From NCBI GenBank assembly GCA_016703105.1, contig JADJCS010000020.1, positions 179,924 through 243,923 on the forward strand: 64,000 nt of DNA, given 5' to 3'. The notes below the pieces were generated by a model. The model was not told where the DNA came from. It searched no databases and saw only the letters and a list, made by a program, of their open reading frames with translations. Positions within the stretch are counted from its first letter, which is position 1, and each line of letters opens with the position of its first letter. This DNA is from Flavobacteriales bacterium (lineage in GTDB: Bacteria; Bacteroidota; Bacteroidia; Flavobacteriales_F; PHOS-HE28). Shown piece after piece: positions 21,204 to 38,910 of the stretch. Both the position numbers and the translations under genes were made by a program.

Positions 21204-22328
21204 TCACCCTGCCACGCTCACGCCGACCAGCTTCCCGATGCCGAAGGTGACCGCCGCAGCGGCAAGGCCGAACAAGACCTGGCGCATACCGGAGAACCAG
21301 ACACCGCGCCCGGTGAATAGCGTGATGGCACTGCCGATGATGAACAATCCGGCCGCGCTCAATCCCAAGCTGATGAGGATGGCCAACATGCCACCCGTGA
21401 AGAAGAAGGGGATCACCGGAAGGATGGCACCCACCGCGAAGAGGAAGAAGGACGTGATGGCCGCTTCCCACGCCGAGCCCTTCAACTCCTCCGCATTGAT
21501 GCCCAGCTCTTCCTTCACCAAGAGCGCGTGCGCCTTGCCTTTGTCCGCGAGCGCCTCGCTGGCCAGTCGCTCGGACTCCGCTTCCGAAATGCCCTTCGCC
21601 ATGAAGATCAGCACGAGCTCCTTGCGCTCTCCTTCAGGGTTCGTTTCCAGTTCGGTCATCTCCAGCGCCATCTGTCGTTCGTAGAGTTCCTGCGAGCTCT
21701 TCACGCTGATCCACTCGCCGAGCGCCATGCTCAGCGCACCAGCGAGCAATCCGGCGAGGCCTGCCAACAACACGCCCTGATCACCGTCGGTCGCACCGGC
21801 AACACCCATCACCAGGCTCATGTTGCTCACCAGCCCGTCGTTGGCGCCGAGCACGGCTGCGCGCAGGGCGTTGCCACCCACGGTCTTGTGCTTGCCTTCT
21901 ATGCGGCCGAGTTCCTCTCCACCCATGCCGCGCTTGTTCGCCATCAGCGACTGCAGGATCAGCACGTGGTTGCGCTCCCCACCGCTCAAGGGGGTTCCGG
22001 TCTTCCGTTTCAACGATACGGTGGCCGACGCAAGGCCCTTCTCCACGTCCATGAGCTGGGCGATCACATGCCCGTAACCCATCCGCTTGCCGATGCGGTC
22101 GAGCATGCGCGCACGCCACGAAGGACCCGGTATTTCCTTCAGCGTCCCGTCCGCCTTCAATTGCGCGAAGGCATGTTCGGCATGACCGCGTTCGATGTCC
22201 GCCATTTCGCGGAAGAGCTTTGCCACTTGCCCGTCCTCCTCGTGGGCGGCGATGCGATCATAGAGGAAGGCCGCGTCCACTTCGGTGCGGAGACTTTCGA
22301 CGCGTAGGCGGAGCGATGGCGTGGACAT
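21204..22328 (-). CDS. MbfA-like iron transporter: N-terminal ferritin-like/erythrin domain fused to a VIT1/CCC1-family membrane domain
   Basis: 'ESLRTEVDAAFLYDRIA..EMADIERGHAEHAF' (ferritin-like), then 'ALRAAVLGANDGLVSNMSLVMGVAGA' and C-terminal TM helices typical of VIT1. Start taken at 'MSTPSLRL' (the track ORF extends to 22388). Confidence 0.8.
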   Translation of the reverse strand: MSTPSLRLRVESLRTEVDAAFLYDRIAAHEEDGQVAKLFREMADIERGHAEHAFAQLKADGTLKEIPGPSWRARMLDRIGKRMGYGHVIAQLMDVEKGLASATVSLKRKTGTPLSGGERNHVLILQSLMANKRGMGGEELGRIEGKHKTVGGNALRAAVLGANDGLVSNMSLVMGVAGATDGDQGVLLAGLAGLLAGALSMALGEWISVKSSQELYERQMALEMTELETNPEGERKELVLIFMAKGISEAESERLASEALADKGKAHALLVKEELGINAEELKGSAWEAAITSFFLFAVGAILPVIPFFFTGGMLAILISLGLSAAGLFIIGSAITLFTGRGVWFSGMRQVLFGLAAAAVTFGIGKLVGVSVAG

Positions 22329-22427
22329 GCGCACAAGGTCGGCAGGAATGTGCGGATCTCTGGCAGCGTGCCCATTCGAATGCGGCACTGACGATCGTCA
22401 CTACTTGACCCGCGTTGTGCACCTACT

Positions 22428-23027
22428 TTGACAAGCTGGTCAAAATTCAAAGGAGTGAAAGTGCCCTTGTTCATCAAGCATGTTCTCCCGTTCGCTGCGA
22501 TGTACGCGGTGATGGTGGCGGCGGCGATCCTTTTGGATCGCGGTCTGCACGCCATGGGGTTGGACCATGTGGGGCGTTATCTGGGCCCTGCGGGAACGGC
22601 GTTCATCGCGCTCTCGTTCGTGTATTCATTGCGCAAGCGGAAGATCATCCACTCCGGGCCACCCAGGACCTACCTCATGGTGCATGAGTATCTCGCTTGG
22701 GCCGGCTCGGTGATGATCCTGGTGCATGCCGGCATCCATTTCAACGCCCGCCTTCCCTGGCTGGCCACCTATATGCTACTGATCAGCGTGGCGAGCGGGC
22801 TTGTGGGCAAATACCTCCTGAAGAGCGCCGGTCATTCTTTGGAAGAACGACGACAGGAATTGATCGCGAGCGGATCTACCACCCCTGAAGTGGACAAGGA
22901 GCTCTTCTTCGATTCGGTGACGGTGAACGCCATGAAGCAATGGCGCGTGGTCCACCTGCCCATCGCGTTCACGCTGGGCTTCCTTACCCTGTTGCACGTG
23001 ATCACCGTCCTCATGTTCGGCAAATGA
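22428..23027 (+). CDS. Small polytopic membrane protein with conserved His residues (cytochrome-b-like/DUF4405-like module). Paralogous to the N-terminal part of 25019..25879. Start uncertain: TTG 22428, GTG 22461 after AGGAG, or ATG 22500.
   Basis: 5 predicted TM helices. Shared motifs with the paralog: 'Y..RKR', 'L..HE.L...G....L.H', 'SG.(V/I)G(K/R)(Y/F)', 'W.V.HLP.A'. The stop overlaps the start of the next cytochrome gene. Confidence 0.6.
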   Translation: MTSWSKFKGVKVPLFIKHVLPFAAMYAVMVAAAILLDRGLHAMGLDHVGRYLGPAGTAFIALSFVYSLRKRKIIHSGPPRTYLMVHEYLAWAGSVMILVHAGIHFNARLPWLATYMLLISVASGLVGKYLLKSAGHSLEERRQELIASGSTTPEVDKELFFDSVTVNAMKQWRVVHLPIAFTLGFLTLLHVITVLMFGK

Positions 23028-24040
23028 AGAAGGTCATCATCCTTGCCTTGATCGCGGCGTTCATCGGGCTGGTGTACCTGTTCCCGCACAGCATGCTCGA
23101 GCCCGGGGAACTGGTGGAAGGACACCAGAAGACCCGCGACAATTGTTTCTCCTGCCATCAGCCCTTCGGAGGTCTGCCCAATGCCAAGTGCATCGTCTGT
23201 CACACGGTTGGCGAGATCGGGAAGGATACACTGCTGAACACGGGACCGACGCTTTTCCATGAGGCGCTCAGCGGTATGGAGTGCGTGGAATGCCATAGCG
23301 AGCACATGGGGCGGAACGCGGACCTGACCATGGGCGGCTTCGAGCACGCACTGGTCCCAGCAGCCATAGTGGAGGACTGCAACCGTTGCCATGCGAAACC
23401 AACGGACGAACTGCACACGCCGCTGCCCAACAAATGCGCGGCCTGCCATGATACGCAGGGCTGGAAACCCGCACGCGAATTCGACCATTCCTTGCTGTCG
23501 GCAGCGAGTAAAAGCGATTGTGCGAGTTGCCACCAGCGCCCCACCGATACGCTACATGAACGCATGAAGGGCAATTGTGCCAGCTGCCACTCGACCACCG
23601 CATGGAAGCCCGCAACCTTCGATCATGCCGCTTTGTCCGCTGCGGAGAAGGACCATTGCGCAACCTGCCACCAACCGCCCAAGGATGCTTTCCACCAAGG
23701 CACCAAGGACAATTGCGCCAGTTGCCATGGCACGAACGCATGGTCGCCTTCCACGTTCGATCACTCGGCGTACTTCCGATTGGATGGCGACCACAACGCG
23801 AAGTGCGCCACCTGTCACCAAGCCAACAACTACGGCAGCTACACCTGCTACGGTTGCCACGAGCATACACCGGGCAATATCATCGGCGAGCACCAGGAAG
23901 AGGGGATCACGAACATCACCGACTGCGTGCGATGCCACCGCAGCGGTGATGAGGATGACATCCGCATGGATGGACGGTCCGGAAGCGAAGGCGGGGAAGG
24001 TGCCCGCAAAGGCCGTGATCGTGAAGGGGAGGACGATTGA
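23024..24040 (+). CDS. Multiheme c-type cytochrome, 12 CxxCH motifs in 338 aa, signal-anchored
   Basis: N-terminal TM/signal 'MKKVIILALIAAFIGLVYLF'. Twelve CxxCH (CFSCH, CIVCH, CVECH, CNRCH, CAACH, CASCH x3, CATCH x2, CYGCH, CVRCH) with repeated '(A/T)WKP.(T/R).FDH' spacing. Confidence 0.85.
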   Translation: MKKVIILALIAAFIGLVYLFPHSMLEPGELVEGHQKTRDNCFSCHQPFGGLPNAKCIVCHTVGEIGKDTLLNTGPTLFHEALSGMECVECHSEHMGRNADLTMGGFEHALVPAAIVEDCNRCHAKPTDELHTPLPNKCAACHDTQGWKPAREFDHSLLSAASKSDCASCHQRPTDTLHERMKGNCASCHSTTAWKPATFDHAALSAAEKDHCATCHQPPKDAFHQGTKDNCASCHGTNAWSPSTFDHSAYFRLDGDHNAKCATCHQANNYGSYTCYGCHEHTPGNIIGEHQEEGITNITDCVRCHRSGDEDDIRMDGRSGSEGGEGARKGRDREGEDD

Positions 24041-24058
24041 ACCGTGCCCCTGACCTGA

Positions 24059-24140
24059 CGGGCTTCCCGACGGCCGTGAAGCAGATGATCGAGGACCCCA
24101 GCAAGATGGTCTTCGGCGACATGGTGCCGGGGGATTGCAT
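24059..24140 (+). other. Non-coding remnant homologous to the 3' end of sucB (~80 nt, about 80-85% identity to 21040-21122), within a spurious ORF
   Basis: Translation '[21 protein letters not shown]' versus the sucB C-terminus '[21 protein letters not shown]'. At nucleotide level 'ggccgtgaagcagatgatcgagga' is identical in both. Confidence 0.55.
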
Positions 24141-24316
24141 TTCAGGTCGTAGGTCTTGGGTGGTTCTCTGCTGCTCGGAGGCATCGGGCAGCCCCTGTGT
24201 CCTTCCGGGGATCACATGTTCAGGGACCGATCCGTCCGGTTCCGTCGAAGGGAAATCCCGTTCGGGGGATATTGTCATGGAACTGCCATGGCTTGCTTCC
24301 TACCTTCGAGGCCGGT

Positions 24317-24703
24317 ATGAAGAACTTCGCGGCTTACCTCCTCATTCTCCATGTGCTGTTGAGCACTTGGGCGCCGGGCGGGCTTGCGGAGGTGGCACGC
24401 CTTCCTTCCCTTCAGAGCCATTACGCGGAGCACTTCCTGGAAAGCGGTGGCACCATGGGGTGGGGTGAGTTCCTGAAACTCCACTTCGCGGACCCGGAAC
24501 ATGAGCGCCAGGATGCGGACAGGCACAGTGCCTTGCCCTTCCATGGTCCTTCCATGGCCATGCACATGTTCCTGCCGCCGGCAGCATCGGCCAGTGCGAT
24601 ACCCGCCGTGGTGACCCCCCACGTCCGTCCTGGGACCCTAGCGGCCGAAGTGGGCCAGTGGCCCGGGCGATCGGTGTTCCATCCGCCCAAGTCGATCGGT
24701 TGA
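24317..24703 (+). CDS. Small His-rich exported/membrane-anchored protein (128 aa), paralog A of a pair ending in '...GQW.GRSVFHPPKSIG'
   Basis: N-terminal hydrophobic helix 'MKNFAAYLLILHVLLSTWA'. Motifs 'LQSHYAEHF', 'HFADPEHE', 'LPFHG' and a C-terminus identical to that of 38911..39300. Confidence 0.55.
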   Translation: MKNFAAYLLILHVLLSTWAPGGLAEVARLPSLQSHYAEHFLESGGTMGWGEFLKLHFADPEHERQDADRHSALPFHGPSMAMHMFLPPAASASAIPAVVTPHVRPGTLAAEVGQWPGRSVFHPPKSIG

Positions 24704-25018
24704 GGCGCGTGGGCAGGAACCCCCTGCCGCGCGGACAAGAGCCACTGCTGCTCGGCGGGTTCTTGAACAGTCGTCAACCGTCAATTCCAGTTCATGCGGA
24801 CCCTTGGGGCCATAGTCTTCAACATCATCTTGCTGCAACGCTGGTCCATGGCGATCATTCCGGTGCACTCGGCGAATATCTGCGATCTGGCGCCATGAGA
24901 GGTCGGACCTTCCCCCATATCCCGGCGTATGATGTTCGTTGTGTGGGCCGCATCGGATGCATGTGCATCGTAGCGTCATATTGGGAACGACTGAACCTAC
25001 CGGCTTGACAGGACATTC

Positions 25019-25879
25019 ATGACGCGCACCACCCACACCCTCTTCATCGGAACCATGTCGGCCATCGTCGTCGTGGTGACCGTGTATCTCTCGTACGTCG
25101 GCTGGTCCTACTACCAATTGCCGCTGGAGGAGCGATTCTATCACCCGCAGCACAACTGGTTCAAGCCGAGCGGCGCCTACGGCCATGGCATCGGTATCCT
25201 CGGCACCTTCCTCATCTTGTTCGGTGTGGTGATCTACATCGCGCGCAAACGCTACAACTTCATGACGAAGCAGCTCCGGCTGAAGTACCTGCTGGAGTTC
25301 CACATTTTCCTCTGCACGCTGGGGCCGATCCTCATCCTCTTCCACACGGCCTTCAAATTCGGCGGACTGGTCTCAGTGGCGTTCTGGAGCATGGTGGCCG
25401 TGGTTGCCAGCGGCGTCATCGGGCGCTTCATCTACATCCAGATACCGCGCACCGTGGAGGGTCGCGAACTCAGCCTGAACGAGGTGAAGGGTATGCGAGC
25501 CAAACTGGTCGAGAACCTGAAGCAGAGCGTTGGCCTCGACGAGCAACTGATCCCGTTGATCGTCGGCACCACGGACGGCGAGGGTGCTGCCGCAAAGCGC
25601 AGATCGTTCATTTCCAGGTACCTCGATGAACGCAAGGCCGTCGGTGTGATCCGGTCATCCTTGAAGGCGAAGAACATGGCGCGTGAGGAGCAGGCATCCA
25701 TCATCCGCATGGTGAAAGAAGAGTTCGCCTTGTCCCACCGGATCGGTCGATTGCTCACCATGCAGAAACTGTTCAAGTACTGGCATGTGGCGCACCTGCC
25801 CTTCGCGTTGATCATGCTCATCGTGCTCATCATACACGTGGCCGTTACGTTGTCCTTCGGATACAAGTGGATCTTCTGA
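25019..25879 (+). CDS. Polytopic membrane protein: cytochrome-b-like module (paralog of 22428..23027) with an inserted ~110-aa cytoplasmic segment and a final TM helix
   Basis: Aligns with 22428..23027 ('ARKRYNF', 'LLEFHIFLCTLGPILILFHT', 'ASGVIGRFI', 'WHVAHLPFAL'). Its stop overlaps the next start (TGATG). Confidence 0.7.
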   Translation: MTRTTHTLFIGTMSAIVVVVTVYLSYVGWSYYQLPLEERFYHPQHNWFKPSGAYGHGIGILGTFLILFGVVIYIARKRYNFMTKQLRLKYLLEFHIFLCTLGPILILFHTAFKFGGLVSVAFWSMVAVVASGVIGRFIYIQIPRTVEGRELSLNEVKGMRAKLVENLKQSVGLDEQLIPLIVGTTDGEGAAAKRRSFISRYLDERKAVGVIRSSLKAKNMAREEQASIIRMVKEEFALSHRIGRLLTMQKLFKYWHVAHLPFALIMLIVLIIHVAVTLSFGYKWIF

Positions 25880-27210
25880 TGGAAGTGCTGATCGAACAAA
25901 TAGCGATCTACGGTTCGGTGCTCCTGCTCTGCGGGCTCACCATCTTCTTCTACATGCGCAGCCTCAAAAAGAAGTCCGCGATCGTGGAGAAGAAAGTGGC
26001 CAAGGCCAAGGAGGAAGGCATGTTCGAGCCGGTATCGCTGCATCCGTACATCGACCTGAACACCTGCATCGGTAGTGCAGCGTGCGTGGCCGACTGTCCG
26101 GAAAAGGACATCCTCGGCATCGTGGACGGCAAGGCCACGGTGATCCTCGCCAGCAACTGCGTGGGCCATGGCGCTTGCTTCCACGCCTGCCCGGTGCAGG
26201 CCATCTCCCTGCGCATCGGCACCGAGACGCGCGGCATCGATCTGCCGCACGTGGATCAGACTTTCGAGACCAACATCAAAGGGATCTACATCGCGGGGGA
26301 GCTCGGCGGCATGGGTTTGATCAGGAATGGTGTGGAACAGGGTAAGCAGGCCATGGCGAATATCGCGAGCGCCAAGAAGCCCAGGGCCGAAGGCGTGCTC
26401 GATGTGGTGATCATCGGCGCCGGACCGGCCGGTATCTCGGCCACGTTGGAAGCGAAAAAGCAAGGCTTGACCAGCGCCACGTTGGAGCAGGATTCGCTCG
26501 GCGGCACCGTGTACACGTTCCCACGCTCCAAGCTCGTGATGACCTCACCGATGGACCTTCCATTGCATGGCAAGGTGAAGTTGTACGACACCACGAAGGA
26601 TGAACTGCTCCAGCTCTGGCGGAAGGTGATCAGTGAGCACAAGATCGAGATCACCGAGAACACGAAAGTGGATGCCATCGTGCCACAGAAGGACGGGACG
26701 TTCAAGCTGTCCACCAACGTGGGCAAGGACTATATCTGCAACAATGTTCTGTTGGCCATCGGCCGCCGCGGAACACCAAGAAAATTGGGCATACCCGGCG
26801 AAGAGTCGACCAAGGTGGCCTACCGGTTATTGGAACCCGAGAACATCGCTGGCAAGAAAGTCGTGGTTGTGGGCGGTGGTGATGCCGGTGTGGAATCCGC
26901 GATGCTGCTGATGAACGACAATGAAGTGCTCTTGGTCAATCGCAACGAGAATTTCGCGGGTATCAAACCCAAGAACCGTGAAGCAGTGACCGCAGCCATC
27001 GATGCCGGGAAAATGAAGGCGGTCTACAAGGCCAACTTGGTATCCATAGCACCGGAATCCGTGTTGTGCAAAGTGGGTGAAGACACGCAGCAACTGCCGA
27101 ACGACCTCGTGTACATTTTCGCTGGTGGTGAACTCCCTACCGGCTTCTTGCAGAAGGCCGGCATTGAGATCACAAAACGGTTCGGACATATCGTGAAGAA
27201 GCACACGTGA
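25879..27210 (+). CDS. Membrane-anchored FeS-flavoprotein: N-terminal TM helix, 2x ferredoxin-like cluster motifs, and a thioredoxin-reductase-like FAD/NAD(P)-binding pyridine nucleotide-disulfide oxidoreductase domain
   Basis: TM 'IAIYGSVLLLCGLTIFFYM'. 'CIGSAACVADCP' and 'CVGHGACFHACP' (non-canonical Cx2(S/H)x2Cx3CP). Two Rossmann motifs 'VVIIGAGPAGISA' and 'VVVVGGGDAGVESA'. Confidence 0.85.
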   Translation: MEVLIEQIAIYGSVLLLCGLTIFFYMRSLKKKSAIVEKKVAKAKEEGMFEPVSLHPYIDLNTCIGSAACVADCPEKDILGIVDGKATVILASNCVGHGACFHACPVQAISLRIGTETRGIDLPHVDQTFETNIKGIYIAGELGGMGLIRNGVEQGKQAMANIASAKKPRAEGVLDVVIIGAGPAGISATLEAKKQGLTSATLEQDSLGGTVYTFPRSKLVMTSPMDLPLHGKVKLYDTTKDELLQLWRKVISEHKIEITENTKVDAIVPQKDGTFKLSTNVGKDYICNNVLLAIGRRGTPRKLGIPGEESTKVAYRLLEPENIAGKKVVVVGGGDAGVESAMLLMNDNEVLLVNRNENFAGIKPKNREAVTAAIDAGKMKAVYKANLVSIAPESVLCKVGEDTQQLPNDLVYIFAGGELPTGFLQKAGIEITKRFGHIVKKHT

Positions 27211-28829
27211 GATCCCTCGCGACATACCTGTTCGTTGTGCTATCGCTGGTGGCGATGACAAGTCGTGCGCAATTGTCGCCGGGGGATCTGACCACCGCGC
27301 ATGCCAACTTGGAGGGCATGAGCAACTGCACGCAGTGCCACGATCTGGGCAACAAGGTGACGAACGCCAAGTGCCTGGAGTGCCATAAGGAGATCAAGTC
27401 GCTCATCACGCAGAAAAAGGGCTACCACGCAAGCAAGGACGTGAAGGCGAAGGATTGCTTCACCTGCCACAGCGAGCACCATGGACGGAAGTTCGAGATG
27501 GTGCGCTTCGATGAGAAGACGTTCGATCACGGGTTGACGGGCTATGCCCTCACCGGCGCGCACAAGCCCGTTGACTGCCGCGAATGCCACCTACCGGACA
27601 ACATCGCGGACAAGGAGTTGAAGAAGCGGGACAAGACCTTCCTCGGCCTGGACCAGAAGTGCCTTTCCTGTCACGACGACTTCCATCAGAGCACGATGGA
27701 CAAGGATTGCCTGAAGTGCCATACCATGACGGCATGGAAGCCGGCCAGCGTGTTCGATCACGACAAGACCGATTTCCCGCTCAAGGGAAAGCACATCCCT
27801 GTGGATTGCAAGGAATGTCACGCCATCACCACCAAGAACGGCAAGCAGTTCCAAGCGTTCGGCGATGTGCCCCACACGGATTGCAAGGCGTGCCACGATG
27901 ATCCGCACAACGCGCACTTCACCAACGCTTGCGCCCAGTGCCACACGGAGAACGCCTTCTCGACCTTCGCAGGGAAGGACCGCTTCGACCACAACACCAC
28001 GCCGTTCAAGTTGAACGGCAAGCACAAGACCACCGATTGCTTTGAATGCCACAAGCGCACCAGCGATCCGCTAACGGTCTTCCAGGACCGGGCCGGGGTG
28101 GCGATGAACCAATGTGCCACGTGCCACAAGGACCAGCACGATGGGAAGTTCGGCACGGACTGCGCGAAGTGCCACCAGGAGAAAGGCTGGGTCGCCGTGA
28201 AGTCGATGGACTTCTTCGATCACAGTGTCACCGACTTCCCATTGCAGGGAAAGCACGTTGACGTGGATTGCAAGAAGTGTCACAAAGGGCGGTACACCGA
28301 TCCGATCGTTTTCGTGGCGTGCAATAGCTGCCATGCTGACTTCCACAAAGGCGAGTTCGCTGAGAACGGTGTGTCGCCGGATTGCGTGGAGTGCCACTTC
28401 CTCACCGATGGGTTCGATGTGAGCATGTATTCCTTGGAGCAGCACGCCACAACGAAATTCCCGCTGGACGGGGCGCATGTGGCCACACCCTGCTCCGAAT
28501 GCCATTTGAACGAGAAATGGAAGAAAGGTGCCGAGAATTCGACCGGAGAGAAGTGGAAATTCCGCGAACTGGCAATGGCCTGCGCTGATTGCCACGACAA
28601 CGTGCACGGTGAAGAGTTCGCACAGTCAGGTATTACGGATTGCAAGCGTTGCCACGTTACCGGCGACTGGTTCCCCAGCTTGTTCGATCATACCAAGACG
28701 GCTTTTCCGCTGGAAGGTGAACACAAGACCGTGGATTGCCGGGAGTGCCACAAGAACCCTGCGGAGGGCAATGAGAAATTGGGGTCGTTCAAGATCGCGA
28801 AGTACCAATGCATAGACTGCCACAAATAG
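27207..28829 (+). CDS. Multiheme c-type cytochrome, 20 CxxCH motifs in 540 aa (GTG start overlapping the upstream stop)
   Basis: Signal peptide 'MRSLATYLFVVLSLVAMTSRAQ'. 20 CxxCH, about one per 27 aa, with a recurring 'FDH...FPL.G.H..V.C..CH' unit. Confidence 0.9.
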   Translation: MRSLATYLFVVLSLVAMTSRAQLSPGDLTTAHANLEGMSNCTQCHDLGNKVTNAKCLECHKEIKSLITQKKGYHASKDVKAKDCFTCHSEHHGRKFEMVRFDEKTFDHGLTGYALTGAHKPVDCRECHLPDNIADKELKKRDKTFLGLDQKCLSCHDDFHQSTMDKDCLKCHTMTAWKPASVFDHDKTDFPLKGKHIPVDCKECHAITTKNGKQFQAFGDVPHTDCKACHDDPHNAHFTNACAQCHTENAFSTFAGKDRFDHNTTPFKLNGKHKTTDCFECHKRTSDPLTVFQDRAGVAMNQCATCHKDQHDGKFGTDCAKCHQEKGWVAVKSMDFFDHSVTDFPLQGKHVDVDCKKCHKGRYTDPIVFVACNSCHADFHKGEFAENGVSPDCVECHFLTDGFDVSMYSLEQHATTKFPLDGAHVATPCSECHLNEKWKKGAENSTGEKWKFRELAMACADCHDNVHGEEFAQSGITDCKRCHVTGDWFPSLFDHTKTAFPLEGEHKTVDCRECHKNPAEGNEKLGSFKIAKYQCIDCHK

Positions 28830-31531: not shown

Positions 31532-31559
31532 ACGTACGACGCGGATCCGCAGCAAGGCC

Positions 31560-33029
31560 ATGGGACCATGGTTGCGAGGGATCTGTGTAGCGTTCCTTTC
31601 GGCCGTCGGGATGGTCCCGATCAATGTCCTGGCGCAATCGCCGCACGGCGAGGCGATGAAGATCGATTGTGCCGCATGCCACGTACCTGACGGTTGGAGC
31701 GCCATGCGGGACTCGCTGACGTTCGATCACGGGCAGACCCATTTTCCATTGATAGGCGTCCATGACCAGGTGGACTGCAGGTCCTGCCACGCTTCATTGG
31801 TCTTCAGTGAGGCCCCGCCGGACGATTGCATTTCGTGCCACACGGATGTACACAGTATGTCCGTGGGTGACGATTGTGCCCGGTGCCATACGCCGGTGAG
31901 CTGGCTGGTCGACGACATACCTGAGCTGCACGAGCAGAACGGGTTCGCTTTGGTCGGGGTGCATAGCAATTTGAGCTGTGTGGATTGTCACATTTCGGAC
32001 AACGGCAACACATTCATCAGGCTTGGCAATGATTGCATCAATTGCCACCAAGCGGATTACCTCGCCACCAAGAGCCCTGATCATATGTTGGCGGGATTCT
32101 CCGCGAACTGCGTGGAGTGCCATGATCCACTTGGCTTCGGCTGGGCGACCGATCTCGTTGACCACGATTTCTTTCCGCTCACTCTGGGGCACGACATCGG
32201 TGATTGCGCGCGCTGCCATACCACCGGCGATCTCTCGGCCGTATCGCCCGAATGCGTGAGCTGCCATCAGCAGGACTACAACAGCACAACGAACCCGAAC
32301 CACGCGGCTTCCGGATTCTCCACCGATTGCGCCTCCTGCCATACGACCGATCCGGGGTGGACACCAGCGACGTTCGATCACGATGCACAGTTCTTCCCCA
32401 TCTACAGCGGATCGCACAACGGCCAATGGAGCGCGTGCACGGACTGCCACACGAACCCCAATGACTTCTCGGTGTTCACATGCACCGGATGCCACGTGAA
32501 CCCCCAGACCGACGGCGACCACAATGGCATGCCCGGTTATGTCTATGAGAGCAATGCCTGCCTGGCCTGCCACCCGAACGGGGATGCCTTCGGCTTTGAC
32601 CACAACACCACCGATTTCCCCCTCCAAGGGGGTCACGTCGGCGTTAACTGCACCGAGTGCCACGCGAATGGCTATGCGGGCACGCCCACCAACTGCGACG
32701 CGTGCCACATGGACGATTACAACGGCACCACCAACCCGAACCATAGCGGCGCCCAGTTCCCCACGGATTGCGCGCAATGCCACAATGAAACCGCGTGGAC
32801 CCCGGCCAACTTCGATCACGACAACCAGTACTTCCCGATCTATAGCGGGAACCACAACGGCGAATGGAACACCTGTTCTAGTTGCCACACCAACAGCAAC
32901 GACTACAGTGTCTTCAGCTGCATTATCTGCCACGACGACGAGGCACAATTAGCCGACGATCACAGCGGTGAGAACGGATACGCGTTCAACAGCAATGCAT
33001 GCTTCTCATGCCATCCCAGCGGGAACTAG
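31560..33029 (+). CDS. Multiheme c-type cytochrome, 19 CxxCH motifs in 489 aa; paralog of the 37-heme protein with shared N- and C-terminal modules
   Basis: Start at the in-frame ATG just after the upstream stop. Signal peptide 'MGPWLRGICVAFLSAVGMVPINVLAQSPHGEAMKIDCAACH' parallels '..AQSPHGEAMKMDCAQCH' of the upstream gene. The C-terminal '..YSVFSCIICHDDEAQLADDHSGENGYAFNSNACFSCHPSGN' is also shared. Confidence 0.85.
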   Translation: MGPWLRGICVAFLSAVGMVPINVLAQSPHGEAMKIDCAACHVPDGWSAMRDSLTFDHGQTHFPLIGVHDQVDCRSCHASLVFSEAPPDDCISCHTDVHSMSVGDDCARCHTPVSWLVDDIPELHEQNGFALVGVHSNLSCVDCHISDNGNTFIRLGNDCINCHQADYLATKSPDHMLAGFSANCVECHDPLGFGWATDLVDHDFFPLTLGHDIGDCARCHTTGDLSAVSPECVSCHQQDYNSTTNPNHAASGFSTDCASCHTTDPGWTPATFDHDAQFFPIYSGSHNGQWSACTDCHTNPNDFSVFTCTGCHVNPQTDGDHNGMPGYVYESNACLACHPNGDAFGFDHNTTDFPLQGGHVGVNCTECHANGYAGTPTNCDACHMDDYNGTTNPNHSGAQFPTDCAQCHNETAWTPANFDHDNQYFPIYSGNHNGEWNTCSSCHTNSNDYSVFSCIICHDDEAQLADDHSGENGYAFNSNACFSCHPSGN

Positions 33030-33031
33030 CG

Positions 33032-34630
33032 ATGGCTATGCGAACCCTCACGCTTTGGTCCCTTCTCCTGGTCGTATCCGGTTGCTTCGGGCAGGACGCG
33101 CTGCAGGGTGAGGTCACCTTCATCACGGCGAACAACGTGTATGTCAACTTCGGAACTACGGCCGCCATCGCGATCGGGGATACCCTTCACGTGGTGAAGG
33201 GTACAGAGGTCAGTCCCTGCTTGGTGGTGACCACCAAGTCCACCACCTCATGCCTCTGTACCGTCGTTGCGGGGTGCAAGGTCCAGAAGAACGACAAGGT
33301 CGTGCTTAGGACCCCGCATCCCGTTGTGCCGCCTTCGGGTCGGTCGACCGGGAAGGCGGAGAAAGGTCCCGCCGCCGAGAAGGTCCGTGACAATGGCGAA
33401 CGTTATCGAGGCCGGCTTTCGGCGACGAGCTATAGTACGATCCCATCGGCGAGGGAGAACGATCACCGGGTGATGTACCGCCTTTCGGCCAATGCGGACC
33501 GTATCGGCGGCTCCAAGTTCTCCGCCGAGACCTACTTGAACTACCGGCAGTTGTTCCCGGCGGGGGAGAGCAAGTATCCGCAGCGCACGGAGTTTTTCAA
33601 CGTGTATAGCTTGGCGGTGAACTATGCCCCGGACTCCACTTTCTCGATCACGCTCGGGAGGAGGGTCAATAACAGCGCATCCTCCTTGGGGGCCATTGAT
33701 GGATTGCAGGTGGAGAAGCACTTCGGCGGTTTCTTCACGGGCGTGATCGCCGGGTCCCGGCCTGATATCATCGATTACGGCTTGAACGTCGGCCTGCTTG
33801 AATACGGGGGCTACCTGGGATATGCCCGGAGCGCGGAGAAGTTGGATACGCGAACGACATTGGGGCTTTTGCAGCAGACCAATGCGGGACCGGTCGATAG
33901 GAGGTACGCCTACTTTCAGCATAGCTCCACGTTCTGGAACGACCTCAACATCTTCGGTTCCTTTGAGCTCGATCTCTACGGTTTGGTGGATGGTGCACCT
34001 ACCACCAAGGCCCGACTGACCAACTTCTATCTCTCTTCCCGCTATCGGTTCGGAAAGCGGGTCGATCTGTTCGCTTCCTATGATGCCCGGAGGCGTATCG
34101 TTTACTACGAAACCTATCGGAGCGATATTGAGATGCTGCTGGACGATGATGACGCGATGCAGGGTGCCCGCTTGCGGTTGAACGTGCGTCCGATCAAGGA
34201 TATCAGTTTGAGCGCGAGCTACAGCAAGCGGTTCGAAAGTGATGGAGGGAACAGGTCGGACAATATCAACGGCTACATCACCTTTTCCAAGGTCCCTGCC
34301 ATTGGTGGGCGCTGGTCTGTGCAGGTGAACCGGAACACATCGAGCTATGTGAGGAGCGATGTACTATCCGTGCGGCATTCGCGGATGCTCGTCAAGAAGC
34401 GGATGAACGCGAGCGTATATTTCCGTATGGCGAACTACAGGTACTCCACCCTCCTTGATGTGGAGGGGGTTCCCATGGAACGGCACCAGAAGTTCTATGG
34501 CGTCGATCTCTCCTACAACATCCTGCCCAAGTTGGTGTTCAGTGTGTTGGGCGAACTCTCGACCATGGGCGATGAACAGAACTACAGAGTGAACGTGAGC
34601 ATCACAAAACGTTTCGACAGTAAGAGATAG
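33032..34630 (+). CDS. Predicted outer-membrane beta-barrel protein (candidate porin partner of the cytochromes)
   Basis: Signal peptide 'MAMRTLTLWSLLLVVSGCFG'. ~530 aa with many alternating-hydrophobicity stretches ('YSLAVNYAPDSTFSITLG', 'VDLSYNILPKLVFSVLGEL', 'YRVNVSITKRF'). Starts 3 nt after the cytochrome stop. Confidence 0.55.
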   Translation: MAMRTLTLWSLLLVVSGCFGQDALQGEVTFITANNVYVNFGTTAAIAIGDTLHVVKGTEVSPCLVVTTKSTTSCLCTVVAGCKVQKNDKVVLRTPHPVVPPSGRSTGKAEKGPAAEKVRDNGERYRGRLSATSYSTIPSARENDHRVMYRLSANADRIGGSKFSAETYLNYRQLFPAGESKYPQRTEFFNVYSLAVNYAPDSTFSITLGRRVNNSASSLGAIDGLQVEKHFGGFFTGVIAGSRPDIIDYGLNVGLLEYGGYLGYARSAEKLDTRTTLGLLQQTNAGPVDRRYAYFQHSSTFWNDLNIFGSFELDLYGLVDGAPTTKARLTNFYLSSRYRFGKRVDLFASYDARRRIVYYETYRSDIEMLLDDDDAMQGARLRLNVRPIKDISLSASYSKRFESDGGNRSDNINGYITFSKVPAIGGRWSVQVNRNTSSYVRSDVLSVRHSRMLVKKRMNASVYFRMANYRYSTLLDVEGVPMERHQKFYGVDLSYNILPKLVFSVLGELSTMGDEQNYRVNVSITKRFDSKR

Positions 34631-34631
34631 G

Positions 34632-35414
34632 ATGATGAACAAGAAGATCGGATACATGTACGCATCGATCATCTGTGGGGTCATGGTGACCGCATGCGAT
34701 GACGGTCCCAAGACCATTGCCTCGGAAAAGTCCAATGAGGGCACTACCGGGGTCTTCTCCGGAAATGCGGAGGATGCGTCCCAAGGGGCCGCTATGACCG
34801 GCGCAGGGGTGGGGGCGGACGTGCACTCGATCACCGCGCTCGAAGTGCTTCCAACGACGAAGTACGTATACGTGCGTGCGAAGGAGGGCGATGAGGAGTT
34901 CTGGATCGCGTCCACCAAACAGGAGGTCGTGGTGGGCAGAACCTACTTCTACCGTGGCGGACTTCTGAAGACCGATTTTCAGAGCAAGGAGTACAACAGA
35001 ACGTTCGAGAAACTGTATTTGATCTCGCAGCTCGTTCCTTCCGACCATGGCAGCCAAGGTTCGGGTATGCCACCATCCACGCCGTTCACTCCTACCCAGC
35101 AGGAGCCGGCATCGCCGATCATCAGCGAAGGATCCGTGAAGATCTCCGAACTATTGGCGGACCCGAAGAAGTTCGCCGGAAGGTCCGTTCAGGTCAGTGG
35201 CACCTGCACCAAGGTGAACCCGAACATCATGGGTCGTAATTGGGTCCATTTGAACGATGGCACCAACAAGGACCAAGACCTTGTCGTTACCACGGACGTG
35301 CTGATCCCGGAGGGCCATGCCGTAACCATGGTGGGCACCGTGGCGCTGGACAAGGACTTTGGCGCGGGGTATCAGTACGGTATCCTCTTGGAAGGCGGTA
35401 CGCTGGTGAAGTAG
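34632..35414 (+). CDS. Lipoprotein (lipobox 'VTAC'), possibly with an OB-fold-like C-terminal domain; last gene of the cytochrome operon
   Basis: 'MMNKKIGYMYASIICGVMVTACDDG' is a signal peptide with a lipobox Cys. Starts 2 nt after the beta-barrel stop. Confidence 0.55.
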   Translation: MMNKKIGYMYASIICGVMVTACDDGPKTIASEKSNEGTTGVFSGNAEDASQGAAMTGAGVGADVHSITALEVLPTTKYVYVRAKEGDEEFWIASTKQEVVVGRTYFYRGGLLKTDFQSKEYNRTFEKLYLISQLVPSDHGSQGSGMPPSTPFTPTQQEPASPIISEGSVKISELLADPKKFAGRSVQVSGTCTKVNPNIMGRNWVHLNDGTNKDQDLVVTTDVLIPEGHAVTMVGTVALDKDFGAGYQYGILLEGGTLVK

Positions 35415-35434
35415 GCGCTGGTACCGGGCATCGA

Positions 35435-38400
35435 CTAGGAGAACAAGCGGAACGCCCGCTTCCGCACAAAGGCGATCAGACCAATGATCACCAGCACCAT
35501 GACCCCGATGTACACCCATTGCGGTACCGGCACTGGATCGCCGGCGGCATAGGAGTGGAGACCTGAGAGGTAGTAGTTCACCCCGTAGTAGGTCATGATC
35601 ACGGTGGCTAACCCGAAGAGCGAGGCCACATTGTAGGCGTACAGGCCCTGCAGCTTCGGGATGAGCCGCATGTGCAGGATGAACGCATAGACCAGGATGG
35701 TGACCAAGGCCCAGGTCTCCTTCGCATCCCAACCCCAGTAGCGTCCCCAGGATTCGTTGGCCCACACCCCACCGAGGTAGGTGCCGATGCTGATCATGAA
35801 CAAGCCCCCGATCAAGGTCATCTCACTGAGGTAGGACATTTCCTTCACGACCTTGTGGATGCGTTTCTCGTTGTGTTTCGAGAGGAAGATCATCAGGATG
35901 AGGTTGATCAAGCCGATCACCGCGCCCAGCATGAGGAAGCCGTAGCTCCCCGCCTCCAATGAGACGTGGATGGTCAACCAGTAGGAACGCAACACCGGGA
36001 CCAACGGGGTGATCTCCGGGTCCAGGTAGCTCAACATGGCCACGAGCAGTACCGTTGCCGCAAGGATCATGGTCGCTGCGGATCCACCAAAGGATCTCCT
36101 GGTGAACAGGATACCCGCCAGCACCGTGGTCCAGGCGATGTAGATCATCGACTCATAGCCATTGCTCCACGGTGCACGTTCGGAGACGTACCAACGCAGG
36201 CCAAGACCGATCGTGTGCAGGAAGAACCCGAACAGCAGGAGCACGAGCAGCACTTTCTGGACCTTCCGCAGGTCAACGGCGGGTTTGAAGACCGAAAAGA
36301 ACATCAGGAAAAGGAAGGCCACACCCAGGGAGGTGTAGAACAAGGCCAACCGGTTGAAGACGTTCAGTTCGTTCAGCAAGATCTCCGCTCCGATCCGCGC
36401 AGTGCTGGGGACCACGGCCGCACCTTGCTCCTTTTGGTAAGCACTGAGTTCGTTCAGCAGCTTATCAGGAAGTGCATAGTTGCCGGTGGACATGGCCTCC
36501 CGCAACGCATGGACGTATGTGGAGAAGAACCGGTCCGCAACGGGGTCGTTACCATGTTCGTGACCGTCCGATCGCGCACCGACCCAGGTATTGTTGGGGT
36601 CACCCGGCACCGGTATGATCTTGAGCATTCCGCCCCCCAGCACCATGTTCATGATGTTCAAGCGTTCATCCACTTTCATCAGGTCCTTCTCGTAGACCCC
36701 GCGATCGATGGGTTGCATCGCGTTGACCCTGCTGACCTCATCGCGAAGCACGTAGTCGCCGTTCGAATCGAAGAAGTCCTCGTACGCGGCCAGTGGGCCC
36801 GGGACCCCCAACTGCTCGTGTATCTTCTGGTGTTCACCCAGCTTGATCATCGGGACCGCGATCCAGTCCTTGCTACTTGCCAACATCCCCAGGACCACCT
36901 GGTCGGCGGACAGGTCGTTGATGCGCTCCTTGCGGTACACCTTGCGCATCACCTCGCGCGTCAGTGTGTGCATCGGTTTCATTCGCCCTCGATGGTCCTG
37001 GACCACGATCCTGCTGAAACGTTCGGCATGCGCGGCGTCCACGATGTTCAGGTTGTTACGCTGATCGATCACCTTTTGCGCCTGGGCCAGCGTGGGTGCC
37101 GAGAGCAGGGCCAGCACCAACACCGGCACCGTGGTCGTCCTCCTCATCATTTCGATGTTCTCCGAAAGCTTGTGGAACCGGCTCTTCTTGCTCAAGAGGG
37201 ACATGATCATGCCGATGGTCAGCAGGATGTAGCCGATGTAAGAGATCCAGGTCCCCCAGAAGTCGTGGTTCACGCTCAGATATGTCCCAAGCTCATCCTG
37301 GTCGAAGGAGGACTGGAAGAAACGATAGCCATCGTGGTCCAGAACGTTGTTCATGAAGATGCGGTGGTCCTCCTTCACGTCCGCTCGCTCATCTATCAAC
37401 TGTACCTCACTGGCATAGGAGGTGGCGCTGTTGGTGCCAGGGTAGCGCTCCATGATGAAGTCATAGAGCTTCAGGGAGAAGGGGAGGGGAATGTCCTTGG
37501 CCCCATAGGATATGGCCACGTCCATGTCATCCGCATGCGCGACCGCGGGTCTGCCGGCCATGCCCTTCTGCCCATAGACCATCAGTTCCTGCGCGGTGCC
37601 ATTCACCTTCACCACCATCCGAAGTGCGGTCAGGCTTTCGTTCTTCACCTTGGGACCTTCGGATCCGAGTTTGACGACGGCTTGTTCCTTGAAGTCTCCG
37701 AAGACAAATCCATTGGTCCCGTCGTTGTACATGGAGCGAAGCCGCAACGGATGATAGGCTTCCCGTGGATACAATGTGTCCGTGGTCCGCGTGGCCATCA
37801 CGGTCTGTACCAATGCCCTATCCGACTTGATAAGAAGGGAATCGTTCCGGTAGGCGATGTTCACGGCCTCCGGGAGGAGCGCTTCTGTGAAGTTGAAGAG
37901 CACGTTGTGGTACCGCCTGGTCTCTCCGGCGCTGACATAGTATTCCTCCCGACCGCCCATGCCCGCGAACACCACCTTGATGGTCGGCTTGCCGTTCGGA
38001 GCCTCCTCCAATAGCTGCTTGGGATTCGGTATGAACTCTTGGACCTCCGCCTCGATCAGATCATCGCCGATGAGATATGAACCCCTCCAATCGTTGTTCC
38101 CCAAAGTCGAAAAAAGCACGGGTTCATCGAAATGATAGACCTGCTCGCCCTGCCTCACTTGAAAAAGCAAATAGGTCTCCGCCGAAAGGAAACTGTTCGA
38201 CGATCCGTTCTCCCGGATATGCATGATGCCCTCGTAGCCGAAGTACCGTGTAACGCCCGCGCCGATCAGGATCACGATCATGGCCAGGTGGAACGTGAGC
38301 AAGGCCCACTTCCGCTGCCGCACCATCTTGAACCGCACCACGTTCACCATGATGGTGATGGCGAAAAGGACGAGCAGGAGCGAGAACCACGAGGACTTAT

Positions 38401-38596
38401 AGATGACGTGCTGTGCCGAACTGGTGCCGAAGTCGTTCTCCAAGAAGGTGCCTACGCCGATCGAGGCGGCGAACAATAGGATGTACAGCCCCGCAGCGCG
38501 GGTGGTGAACATTGGCGCGAGAACCTTCTGCACACCGGTTCGGAGGGTGATGAGCATCTTCTTCGTTCGGGATGAGGTTGCCATGGATCGTGTCAT
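35435..38596 (-). CDS. ccsBA: System II cytochrome c biogenesis protein, fused CcsB(ResB)-CcsA (CcsBA) heme exporter/lyase
   Basis: 1053 aa. N-terminal ResB-like TMs plus a large periplasmic domain. C-terminal CcsA with the Trp-rich WWD motif 'WGRYWGWDAKETWALVT' and conserved His. This fused form is typical of Bacteroidota. Confidence 0.9.
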   Translation of the reverse strand: MTRSMATSSRTKKMLITLRTGVQKVLAPMFTTRAAGLYILLFAASIGVGTFLENDFGTSSAQHVIYKSSWFSLLLVLFAITIMVNVVRFKMVRQRKWALLTFHLAMIVILIGAGVTRYFGYEGIMHIRENGSSNSFLSAETYLLFQVRQGEQVYHFDEPVLFSTLGNNDWRGSYLIGDDLIEAEVQEFIPNPKQLLEEAPNGKPTIKVVFAGMGGREEYYVSAGETRRYHNVLFNFTEALLPEAVNIAYRNDSLLIKSDRALVQTVMATRTTDTLYPREAYHPLRLRSMYNDGTNGFVFGDFKEQAVVKLGSEGPKVKNESLTALRMVVKVNGTAQELMVYGQKGMAGRPAVAHADDMDVAISYGAKDIPLPFSLKLYDFIMERYPGTNSATSYASEVQLIDERADVKEDHRIFMNNVLDHDGYRFFQSSFDQDELGTYLSVNHDFWGTWISYIGYILLTIGMIMSLLSKKSRFHKLSENIEMMRRTTTVPVLVLALLSAPTLAQAQKVIDQRNNLNIVDAAHAERFSRIVVQDHRGRMKPMHTLTREVMRKVYRKERINDLSADQVVLGMLASSKDWIAVPMIKLGEHQKIHEQLGVPGPLAAYEDFFDSNGDYVLRDEVSRVNAMQPIDRGVYEKDLMKVDERLNIMNMVLGGGMLKIIPVPGDPNNTWVGARSDGHEHGNDPVADRFFSTYVHALREAMSTGNYALPDKLLNELSAYQKEQGAAVVPSTARIGAEILLNELNVFNRLALFYTSLGVAFLFLMFFSVFKPAVDLRKVQKVLLVLLLFGFFLHTIGLGLRWYVSERAPWSNGYESMIYIAWTTVLAGILFTRRSFGGSAATMILAATVLLVAMLSYLDPEITPLVPVLRSYWLTIHVSLEAGSYGFLMLGAVIGLINLILMIFLSKHNEKRIHKVVKEMSYLSEMTLIGGLFMISIGTYLGGVWANESWGRYWGWDAKETWALVTILVYAFILHMRLIPKLQGLYAYNVASLFGLATVIMTYYGVNYYLSGLHSYAAGDPVPVPQWVYIGVMVLVIIGLIAFVRKRAFRLFS

Positions 38597-38910
38597 AGGG
38601 GTGTTCGGCTCGACCGTCGATGGGCTTGTACTTCTTTGGAACAGTTCGTTGCGTCGTTGCTACTGCGGATCATGCCTGATCGGGAACCGCCCATCTGGAT
38701 GCGAAGTTGCGCTGGTTCCATCGTTGGACCATGACGACCTTGCGGACCACCCTCGCCGAATATGCTTCGCACCACATGCATGCTGGGAGGTAAGGATGGA
38801 ACCAATGATGAAGTAGCCATGGGAACGACCGAAGTGAATTGAACGGAACACGACCGTCGCGCTTACGTCAGAGGCGACAAGTCATCACGGTGCGGCGGCA
38901 CCGCGATCGA

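Follow-up and report, generated by a model that had tools for sequence, protein, structure and literature searches.

What is known of extracellular electron transfer (EET) comes almost wholly from Shewanella, Geobacter and a small number of iron oxidizers. Bacteroidota rank among the most abundant organisms that degrade particles, flocs and sediments, and they are regarded as simple heterotrophs, either aerobic or fermentative. Here, we describe a locus rich in multiheme c-type cytochromes (MHCs) in a 64-kb stretch of a Flavobacteriales genome (assembly GCA_016703105.1, contig JADJCS010000020.1; the whole stretch is called the window below). On balance, we lean towards the interpretation that this locus encodes a PCC3-type conduit of porin and multiheme cytochromes, leading from the cytoplasm to or through the outer membrane, and we find that PCC3, rather than Mtr or Pio, is the known system that it closely parallels. 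PCC3 is a porin-cytochrome cluster predicted in neutrophilic Fe(II) oxidizers, for example Slit_1446-1449 of Sideroxydans lithotrophicus ES-1 and in Leptothrix cholodnii SP-6 (He et al. 2017, PMC5566968). Its inner-membrane protein (IMP) has about 300 amino acids (aa) and five transmembrane (TM) helices, with the motifs SGXXG on TM4 and WX3HX13H on TM3 and TM5, a motif set proposed as the di-heme-b signature of the IMPs of PCC3 and PCC4, which were suggested to be quinone-active cytochromes b (PMC5566968). We found no description of the Bacteroidota system in the literature, where the sole trace of it is the mention of "undescribed" many-heme Bacteroidota cytochromes in the same set of wastewater metagenome-assembled genomes (MAGs).

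Our analysis supports the presence at this locus of the anatomy of an electron conduit, including secreted bis-histidine wires, an outer-membrane (OM) beta-barrel, a lipoprotein, heme-b-type membrane modules, a cytoplasmic FeS-flavoprotein and a CcsBA maturase. The genes are designated by the letters A to M (21204..38596), with window coordinates used throughout, and those that make up the proposed conduit are as follows.

B: 22428..23027, + strand, 199-aa short paralogue of F, putative di-heme b membrane protein
C: 23024..24040, + strand, c-type cytochrome with 12 hemes and an N-terminal signal/anchor helix, in translational coupling with B
F: 25019..25879, + strand, 286-aa inner-membrane protein with 5 TM helices, putative di-heme cytochrome b
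G: 25879..27210, + strand, predicted membrane-anchored cytoplasmic FeS-flavoprotein with a TrxR-type FAD/NAD(P)H module
H: 27207..28829, + strand, 20-heme secreted cytochrome, the conserved "first wire"
I: 28808..31531, + strand, 37-heme secreted cytochrome, expanded copy of the variable "second wire"
J: 31560..33029, + strand, 19-heme secreted cytochrome, basal version of the variable wire
K: 33032..34630, + strand, OM beta-barrel of ~22 strands at residues ~135-540 of the open reading frame (ORF)
L: 34632..35414, + strand, lipoprotein with two small beta-rich domains, always after K in Bacteroidota
M: 35435..38596, - strand, fused CcsBA (System II cytochrome c synthase), convergent with the operon

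The order of these genes is that of PCC3, namely IMP, periplasmic MHC, large variable MHC and porin. The likeness rests on motifs and architecture, taken from the description of the PCC3 proteins, and it extends to each of the four components. F has 286 aa, five TM helices, SGVIG, H95-x13-H109 and W255-x3-H259-x13-H273, and departs from the PCC3 IMP in the tryptophan of TM3, which is leucine in this clade and tryptophan in most of 150 representatives of the F family; most of these representatives carry the exact PCC3 motif set. The periplasmic MHC of PCC3 contains 21, 24 or 27 hemes in ~66-aa triheme repeats at 26-27 aa per heme, compared with 20 or 23 hemes at 27 aa per heme for H and its relatives. 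The second MHC of PCC3 is repeat-rich, highly variable in heme number and assigned to the outside of the cell; I and J are also variable and repeat-rich, but carry neither a lipobox nor a sorting domain of the type IX secretion system (T9SS). Finally, 22 strands are predicted for the L. cholodnii porin, compared with ~22 in the model of K. The initial annotation of this DNA did not recognize the gene order as that of any characterized system, a claim that does not survive, since the order matches the predicted PCC3 architecture.

What is new with respect to PCC3 begins with the phyla, as PCC3 has been described only in Alpha-, Beta- and Gammaproteobacteria, whereas the present cluster occurs in Bacteroidota, Calditrichota and Zixibacteria. 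Also new are the obligatory flavoprotein G, to which Bacteroidota add lipoprotein L and a dedicated CcsBA (none of the three described for PCC3), the donor and the direction of flow that we propose (NAD(P)H and outward here, as opposed to the inward, quinone-directed flow hypothesized for PCC3), a rule by which the variable wire has 3n+1 hemes, and carriage on a plasmid.

In contrast, the analogy initially drawn to MtrCAB, PioAB and the Geobacter porin-cytochrome complexes is functional only, as tests of family membership fail. The locus shares with Mtr, Mto and Pio a periplasmic bis-His multiheme wire meeting an OM barrel, whereas electrons enter Mtr-type systems through a quinol oxidase of the NapC/CymA type, which the entry module here is not. 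Cytochromes C, H, I and J score 26.6-60.6 bits against the MtrA/DmsE decaheme family TIGR03508 (cut-off 192.2), the OmcA/MtrC family TIGR03507 gives 17.9 bits (cut-off 209.3), and no cytochrome at the locus has a lipobox. Likewise, K, with ~22 strands, falls outside the 26-28 strands of MtrB/PioB-type barrels and is not specifically MtrB-like. Identity with the Geobacter Ext/Omb cluster was rejected on the same kind of test. More generally, named cytochrome families (Mtr, Ext, Hmc, Nrf and Omc) gave only sub-threshold scores for the four cytochromes in Pfam and NCBIfam, and we reject membership in any of them, only generic c3/c7 models having been matched above threshold. I and J do resemble the Geobacter GSU1996-family dodecaheme nanowires in consisting of tandem ~70-aa c7-type triheme units (the TIGR04257 nanowire_3heme domain reaches E 1.6e-5 and 25 bits against a cut-off of 40), but differ from them in their range of 16-73 hemes, their 3n+1 heme number, their conserved non-repeat ends and their association, within one cassette, with a barrel and an entry module of the inner membrane.

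Components of the locus

A regular-expression search of the translations reproduced the 12, 20, 37 and 19 CxxCH motifs that had been counted in four secreted c-type cytochromes. These 88 motifs lie in frame within C, H, I and J, and all six frames of the window together contain only 95, a concentration that is not due to chance. Apart from one in the signal peptide of J, the cysteines of these cytochromes all fall within a CxxCH motif, and histidines number about two per heme (27 His for 12 CxxCH in C, 43 for 20 in H, 78 for 37 in I and 39 for 19 in J). A motif search of the same translations returned no CxxCK, CxxxCH or CxxxxCH. The supply of two histidines per heme, coupled with the absence of CxxCK, indicates bis-His electron-transfer hemes rather than catalytic ones. 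Heme density is also that of a wire, with 24.5-28 aa per heme across the four cytochromes (27 in H, 24.5 in I), compared with 22-39 (median 26) in published wire-like multiheme cytochromes.

These analyses show, in addition to bis-His wire chemistry, a modular expansion of the wire in steps of three hemes. I is composed of 70-72-aa triheme modules in which CxxCH motifs are spaced in a 15/25/30-32 pattern, each module containing three CxxCH and three further histidines (in NPxH, Y/F-DH and G-x-H). It matches Pfam Cytochrome_C7 at 3e-42, and its gene contains DNA repeated in tandem, in units of 210 bp (29650..30229, 91% identity) and of 216 bp (30124..31279, 71% identity). I and J are 51% identical, with conserved ends, and represent two copies of the same variable wire. 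In relatives, this second wire carries 16, 19, 22, 25, 28, 31, 34, 37, 40, 43, 46, 52, 64 or 73 hemes, and 61 of the 65 counts at the variable-wire position equal 1 modulo 3. The first cytochrome after G, on the other hand, has 20 or 23 hemes in all 55 loci (23 in most Flavobacteriaceae). The 37 hemes of I, singled out at first as exceptional for one polypeptide, are therefore mid-range among the 16-73 hemes of orthologous positions, and Bacteroidota proteins with more than 100 hemes are already in the literature. The smaller cytochrome C matches the Pfam Cytochrom_CIII/c3/C7 models and resembles both the N-terminal part of H and a heptaheme c3 found in Proteobacterial plasmid triads, described below (E 1e-14 to 1e-19); the N-terminal ~250 aa of H resemble this same IMP-adjacent c3. 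In one Chitinophagales locus (GCA_041392475.1, L002, 1..9957), a cytochrome exceeding 1788 aa, encoded upstream of the K homologue, runs off the locus and is followed by ~8 small multiheme ORFs, an array that reflects either extreme wire expansion or a fragmented assembly.

The outer-membrane components also bear out what had been predicted from the sequence. For K, read as an OM beta-barrel of ~530 aa, the AlphaFold2 model (mean pLDDT 83) consists of a small N-terminal beta domain with conserved cysteines, a disordered linker and a barrel of ~22 strands. For L, read as a lipoprotein following the barrel, a lipobox and a conserved C-x-x-G-P-K-V-I are found in 71 of 79 homologues, and the Emticicia orthologue passes the threshold for the Pfam GW (SH3-like) domain (E 1.4e-6). 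Neither K and L nor the membrane proteins B and F match any family above threshold in Pfam or NCBIfam, profile searches with K, F and L alignments found no relative among PDB sequences, and all 561 K homologues are annotated as hypothetical. The convergent maturase M (1053 aa) combines ResB (PF05140, 1.8e-17) and Cytochrom_C_asm (PF01578, 9.6e-39) in one protein, confirming the proposed ResB-CcsA fusion; it scores 174.8 bits against TIGR03144 (cut-off 187.6), and its gene lies beside the cassette in almost every Bacteroidota locus.

Most of these genes are tightly joined. Stop and start overlap as ATGA between B and C and as GTGA between G and H, the F stop and the G ATG share 1 nt, H and I overlap by 22 nt, and gaps of 2 and 1 nt separate J from K and K from L. 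The tight coupling first reported for the operon thus holds at these overlaps and 1-2-nt gaps, but two starts needed correction, those of C (to 23024) and J: with J begun at the signal-peptide ATG at 31560, instead of the ORF-list start at 31131, the gap between I and J becomes 28 nt. The interval of ~1 kb between C and F holds one small ORF and a 315-bp non-coding stretch, so that B-C and F-L are two separate units. An Rfam scan identified no regulatory RNA in 20000..40000, and a promoter/terminator scan stayed at chance level under a sigma-70 model that is unsuited to Bacteroidota.

The two membrane proteins that head the cytochrome units, F and B, are 27% identical (BLASTP, E 1e-5) and share HX13H on two helices together with SGxxG. 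Residues H95, H109, W255-x3-H259, H273 and S131-G132-x-x-G135 (SGVIG in F) are invariant in an alignment of 28 sequences. Hydropathy and AlphaFold2 give F five helices, two of which carry HX13H and flank a third with SGxxG, and a cytoplasmic helical insert of ~105 aa separates TM4 from TM5. The AlphaFold2 model of F is all-helical (pLDDT 72), and fold searches with this moderate-confidence model were uninformative. Judging from the positive-inside rule, H95 and H259 would lie near the cytoplasm and H109 and H273 near the periplasm, in the classic two-heme transmembrane arrangement, and F is predicted from these motifs to bind heme b. The two proteins had been regarded as His-containing, cytochrome-b-like modules that could interact with quinol; they are paralogues with a di-heme-b signature, but the quinol interaction was not borne out.

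Family assignments place F at the margin of known models. Against a gathering score of 26.7 for DUF4405 (PF14358), a family of the two-heme cytochrome clan, F reaches 14.8 bits (E 0.041) and B only E 1.4; among relatives, P0387 reaches 26.2 bits and several from Calditrichota carry a precomputed PF14358 match. Members of the F family also weakly reach Ferric_reduct and Ni_hydr_CYTB in Pfam. F and B themselves show no match to Ferric_reduct (PF01794) at E<=10, and one distant family member gives E 0.0015, below the cut-off. The family is large (3603 clusters at 50% identity), and the cluster members of two distant relatives come from Acidobacteriota, KSB1, Calditrichota and Schekmanbacteria, with none from a PCC3-bearing proteobacterium among the few organism names given.

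G has an architecture of one N-terminal TM helix, a lysine-rich segment, a two-cluster ferredoxin domain (Fer4_10) and a Pyr_redox_3/2 module (Pyr_redox_3 E 5.8e-38), so that Pfam confirms the membrane-anchored FeS/FAD NAD(P)H-type oxidoreductase previously recognized in the operon. G has no export signal, which places its cofactor domains in the cytoplasm, and its N-terminal anchor is positive-inside. The nearest solved structures are those of YpdA/Bdr (5e-23), followed by TrxR-type ferredoxin-NADP+ reductases (FNRs; 1e-12 to 3e-15), with PDB 6gar, 5ygq, 3ab1 and 3lzw as the FNR structures matched. Across 55 orthologues, the flavin part contains no conserved cysteine and no CxxC, and G is therefore not a disulfide reductase; instead, its two dinucleotide-binding domains, lack of CxxC and fused ferredoxin domain fit the fold of TrxR-type ferredoxin-NAD(P)+ reductases. 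An identity as a YpdA/Bdr bacillithiol-disulfide reductase was rejected (TIGR04018, 156.5 bits against a cut-off of 339.9, and no conserved active-site Cys). The ferredoxin motifs are conserved as CIGSxACxxxCP and CVGHGACFHACP. In the 55 orthologues, the second cysteine is replaced by a conserved serine in motif 1 and by a conserved histidine in motif 2 (residues ~67-108 of the ORF from 25867), while the Calditrichia and Zixibacteria orthologues have a canonical CxxCxxCxxxCP in motif 1 and also a histidine in motif 2. These substitutions suggest a 3Fe-4S or a His-ligated 4Fe-4S cluster. An apparent F-G fusion, P0335, probably reflects a chimeric or frameshifted gene call, and we draw no conclusion from it.

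Conservation, spread and mobility of the cassette

We show that the cassette is autonomous, conserved and mobile. In a scan of one genome per species, relatives of K were found in at least 275 species, and among the matches listed nearly all belong to Bacteroidota (Flavobacteriales, Cytophagales, Chitinophagales and Saprospiraceae). Cultured carriers include Arenibacter, Maribacter, Aequorivita, Ulvibacter, Lutibacter, Luteirhabdus, Thermobacterium and Emticicia, with Arenibacter echinorum DSM 23522 and Aequorivita antarctica SW49 among the strains. The order F-G-cytochromes-K-L is kept in the ~47 Bacteroidota loci, comprising all those with enough flanking sequence, with CcsBA alongside. None of these cassettes includes a gene for a catalytic subunit, and clustering of neighbors revealed no conserved flanking gene, as no family recurs in more than 8 of the 47 loci. 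Moreover, the 100-kb plasmid pEMTOL02 of a cultured strain, Emticicia oligotrophica DSM 17448, carries a complete cassette of seven genes on one strand with ccsBA first, in the order ccsBA-F-G-MHC23-MHC40-K-L (NC_018749.1, 10899..23483).

Outside Bacteroidota, one Calditrichia and one Zixibacteria contig contain the order IMP, 20-heme MHC, 16-heme MHC, barrel and G. Identities to the proteins described here are 32% for F, 37-41% for G (E 1e-101 to 1e-121), 37% for H and 36% for the J-type wire, and the barrel is matched at E 3e-16 to 2e-31. F, G, H, the J-type wire and K therefore form the core, to which Bacteroidota have added L and the dedicated CcsBA.

Some of the surroundings of individual cassettes deserve mention. 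Just upstream of the cassette on pEMTOL02 lie genes for an extracytoplasmic function (ECF) sigma factor, another OM barrel and a Rieske/DUF5777/YceI/cytochrome c cluster. In 5-6 related Flavobacteriaceae loci (L032, L035, L039 and others), the cassette is preceded by an ECF sigma factor, a FecR-like protein and a TonB-dependent receptor, a trio that is possibly a surface-signaling regulator and is not more widely conserved. Finally, a 2.8-kb contig with a K homologue (L025, JBFFKS010000245.1, 47% identity) is binned as Xianfuyuplasma sp., a wall-less organism with no outer membrane; it is most likely a mis-binned Bacteroidota contig.

Electron path and alternative functions

An indication of how this class of membrane proteins receives electrons comes from an unnamed system of Proteobacteria. 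Triads composed, in this order, of an FNR-type NAD(P)H-FAD-2Fe2S protein, an F/B-like IMP and a heptaheme c3 are found on plasmids of Sphingomonads, Alteromonas, Variovorax and Legionella (L086, 4998..8355, on a Sphingobium plasmid; L085, 5974..9457, on an Alteromonas plasmid; L087 and L088). They resemble the locus described here in their IMP, a homologue of both F and B (E 1e-6 to 1e-12, 25% identity), in their c3, which is homologous to C and to the N-terminal part of H, and in having an NAD(P)H-flavin-FeS gene, located in the triads directly upstream of the IMP. In contrast to this locus, they have no barrel and no long wires, contain only 7 hemes, employ a flavoprotein of another superfamily and are found in a metal-resistance or hydrogenase context. 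The triad flavoprotein (~640 aa), made of an N-terminal region of ~280 aa followed by FAD_binding_6, NAD_binding_1 and 2Fe-2S domains, is non-homologous to G and a putative non-orthologous replacement of G's function. Two unrelated NAD(P)H-flavin-FeS modules beside the same type of membrane protein is the pattern expected if the IMP takes electrons from cytoplasmic NAD(P)H. Triads occur in copper-resistance islands (a MerR-type regulator or periplasmic heavy-metal sensor, a multicopper oxidase, CopB, RND efflux and DUF1622), a context that fits a reductive role towards periplasmic or external oxidants, and the triad looks like a candidate NAD(P)H-driven periplasmic metal reductase. The Alteromonas triad adjoins an uptake [NiFe] hydrogenase, a setting in which flow may be reversible. 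The synteny of F with G across three phyla, coupled with the pairing of its plasmid homologue with an unrelated FNR-type NAD(P)H-FAD-2Fe2S protein, favors NAD(P)H rather than quinol as the electron source for F.

In the path that we propose, NAD(P)H would be oxidized at the cytoplasmic face by membrane-anchored G, passing electrons from FAD to its two FeS clusters, and the electrons would cross the inner membrane through two stacked b-hemes in F, held by H95/H259 on the cytoplasmic side and H109/H273 on the periplasmic side. H, with its 20 hemes, would take them up from F, and they would then run along the triheme-repeat wires I and J to barrel K and lipoprotein L, where an external or surface acceptor, such as Fe(III)/Mn(IV) minerals, metal ions, humics or partner cells, may be reduced. 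CcsBA would mature the 88 hemes, and B-C could constitute a second, smaller entry module linked to a putative iron exporter encoded by the neighboring gene A. We infer the binding of heme b, the contact between G and F, the direction of flow, the presence of a cytochrome within K, the points at which I and J end and the acceptor. G stays with F even where the gene order is shuffled between phyla, which suggests that the two work together. An outward direction would follow, by established bioenergetics, from the membrane potential and from the fact that NAD(P)H is a low-potential donor. At about -320 mV, NAD(P)H is a donor and not a plausible sink for electrons at the level of Fe(II).

The electron-conduit interpretation of the initial annotation is thus upheld in its porin-cytochrome anatomy, but not in its quinol entry or its claims of uniqueness. 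A more specific proposal, which we put forward tentatively as possible rather than probable, is that G-F is an unrecognized transmembrane exporter, a split, FeS-containing analogue of NADPH oxidases and ferric reductases that bypasses the quinone pool and, together with length-adjustable wires of 3n+1 hemes and the barrel-lipoprotein pair, would provide plasmid-transferable EET. The proposed G-F pair resembles NOX/FRE/STEAP and MsrQ-Fre in its cytoplasmic NAD(P)H, its flavin, its two stacked b-hemes on paired-His helices and its acceptor across the membrane. It differs from NOX and ferric reductases in that it has no PF01794 match, five rather than six TM helices in F, a separate TrxR-type flavoprotein with a ferredoxin domain in place of a fused FNR-type domain, and an MHC as acceptor.

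Several observations weigh against an outward conduit of the PCC3 type. PCC3 is itself a prediction and functionally unverified. The barrel of K is smaller than that of MtrB, which has 26 strands, and since I and J have neither a lipobox nor a T9SS C-terminal domain, the route of the hemes beyond the barrel is left unexplained. F may contain a quinone site, and the hydrogenase beside the Alteromonas triad could reflect inward flow. In addition, Arenibacter, Aequorivita, Maribacter, Ulvibacter and Emticicia are described as aerobic heterotrophs, in which a respiratory role for EET is not obvious.

Some of these points fit a role confined to the periplasm, in which K would let substrates through and do no more, with the wires serving as a reductase or electron buffer fed by NAD(P)H. 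Targets entering through K might be Fe(III) chelates, in the course of iron uptake, Cu(II), Cr(VI), Mn(III) or oxidized organics, or else charge might be stored during oxic/anoxic swings. We judge this unlikely, although the missing lipobox and T9SS signal of I and J, the barrel-less triads in copper-resistance islands behind metal sensors, the putative iron-exporter gene beside B-C and the capacitor role suggested in the literature for giant MHCs are all in its favor, because the barrel and lipoprotein are conserved as strictly as the cytochromes, the barrel is kept in other phyla, and a 20-heme wire plus wires of 16-73 hemes far exceed what a periplasmic function needs. The idea that the cytochromes are parts of a conventional respiratory enzyme of the periplasm, such as a reductase of nitrite, hydroxylamine, tetrathionate or sulfite, is effectively refuted: it could draw on weak, sub-threshold matches of NrfH, HmcA and DmsE type, but scores for the named families lie far under their cut-offs, no CxxCK and no signature of a lone five-coordinate heme are present, each heme has two histidines, and no gene for a catalytic subunit accompanies the cassette in the ~47 loci. 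Catalytic multiheme enzymes themselves (NrfA, HAO and the octaheme tetrathionate and nitrite reductases) were rejected as identities for the four cytochromes for the same lack of CxxCK and ~2 His per heme, and because no such family was matched in Pfam or NCBIfam.

The remaining explanations keep the conduit and change its direction or its entry point. In one of them, the conduit would take up electrons supplied by Fe(II), Mn(II), minerals, cathodes or partner cells, and F would hand them to the quinone pool or, through G, to NAD(P)+. This is improbable: the architecture and gene order do match those of PCC3, for which a role in Fe(II) oxidation was proposed, multiheme conduits can in principle run both ways, and the Alteromonas triad lies beside an uptake hydrogenase, yet reduction of NAD(P)+ by electrons at the level of Fe(II) is strongly uphill, inward movement opposes the membrane potential, and a flavoprotein of the NAD(P)H type, with which F is always paired, would have no role in quinone-directed uptake. 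The description of the cultured hosts as aerobic heterotrophs also argues against uptake, as do the 2-oxoglutarate dehydrogenase E1/E2 genes encoded in the window near the locus, which are consistent with a heterotrophic tricarboxylic acid cycle. We give scarcely more or less credence to an outward conduit fed by quinol, with F and B as cytochrome b quinol dehydrogenases and G in an accessory or regulatory role. In support of quinol entry, all characterized EET entry modules are, to our knowledge, quinol oxidases (CymA, ImcH and CbcL). B has no flavoprotein gene of its own, and He et al. proposed a quinone-active cytochrome b for such IMPs (PMC5566968). Nevertheless, F and G remain coupled in three phyla despite shuffling, distant F homologues are accompanied by an analogous NAD(P)H-FAD-FeS partner, the large conserved cytoplasmic insert of F suits docking of a partner, and we identified no quinone-site motif in F.

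If G-F is indeed such an exporter, hundreds of supposedly strictly aerobic Bacteroidota, as well as Calditrichota and Zixibacteria, would gain EET capacity, and the related PCC3 of iron oxidizers would connect to cytoplasmic nucleotides or FeS proteins, not to quinones. If the conduit works as we propose, models of redox balance, Fe/Mn cycling and survival under oxygen swings would have to be altered for the Bacteroidota that carry it, and the long-predicted PCC3 class would acquire its first tractable hosts, one of them with the cassette on a plasmid. In this respect, the obligatory NAD(P)H-FeS flavoprotein offers a concrete mechanistic clue to the feeding of this IMP class, and the strict three-heme arithmetic of the variable wire suggests a natural system for tuning wire length.

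Neighboring genes

Three further genes border the conduit genes.

A: 21204..22388, - strand, VIT1 iron-transporter domain with an N-terminal rubrerythrin-like (erythrin) domain, divergent from B-C
Small His-rich ORF: 24317..24703, + strand, upstream of the F operon, peripheral and not core
Small His-rich ORF: 38911..39255, - strand, paralogue of 24317..24703, upstream of ccsBA

A matches Pfam VIT1 (2.8e-65) and Rubrerythrin (8e-5). The divergent gene had been called an MbfA-like iron transporter, and while the erythrin and VIT1 architecture agrees with this, the score for the MbfA equivalog NF045676 is no more than 16 bits, far below its cut-off of 450. A adjoins B-C in the relative loci L005, L006 and L008, and the A/B/C module is confined to close relatives of the organism of the window. 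The products of the two small His-rich ORFs share the C-terminus ...GQWxxRSVFHPPKSIG and have no Pfam or NCBIfam match, and their homologues occur near the cassette only in the close relatives L004, L006, L008, L010, L011 and L018.

The window matches a Flavobacteriales MAG from activated sludge, and two neighboring ORFs have T9SS C-terminal sorting domains, in agreement with the T9SS-bearing, Bacteroidota-like host originally proposed. These ORFs, 39513..41627 (-) and 41534..43150 (-), lie directly beyond the locus and encode two large secreted proteins with Por_Secre_tail domains, without heme motifs and with no evident tie to the cassette. A 2459-aa ORF is located at 54984..62363 (+), near the right end of the window.

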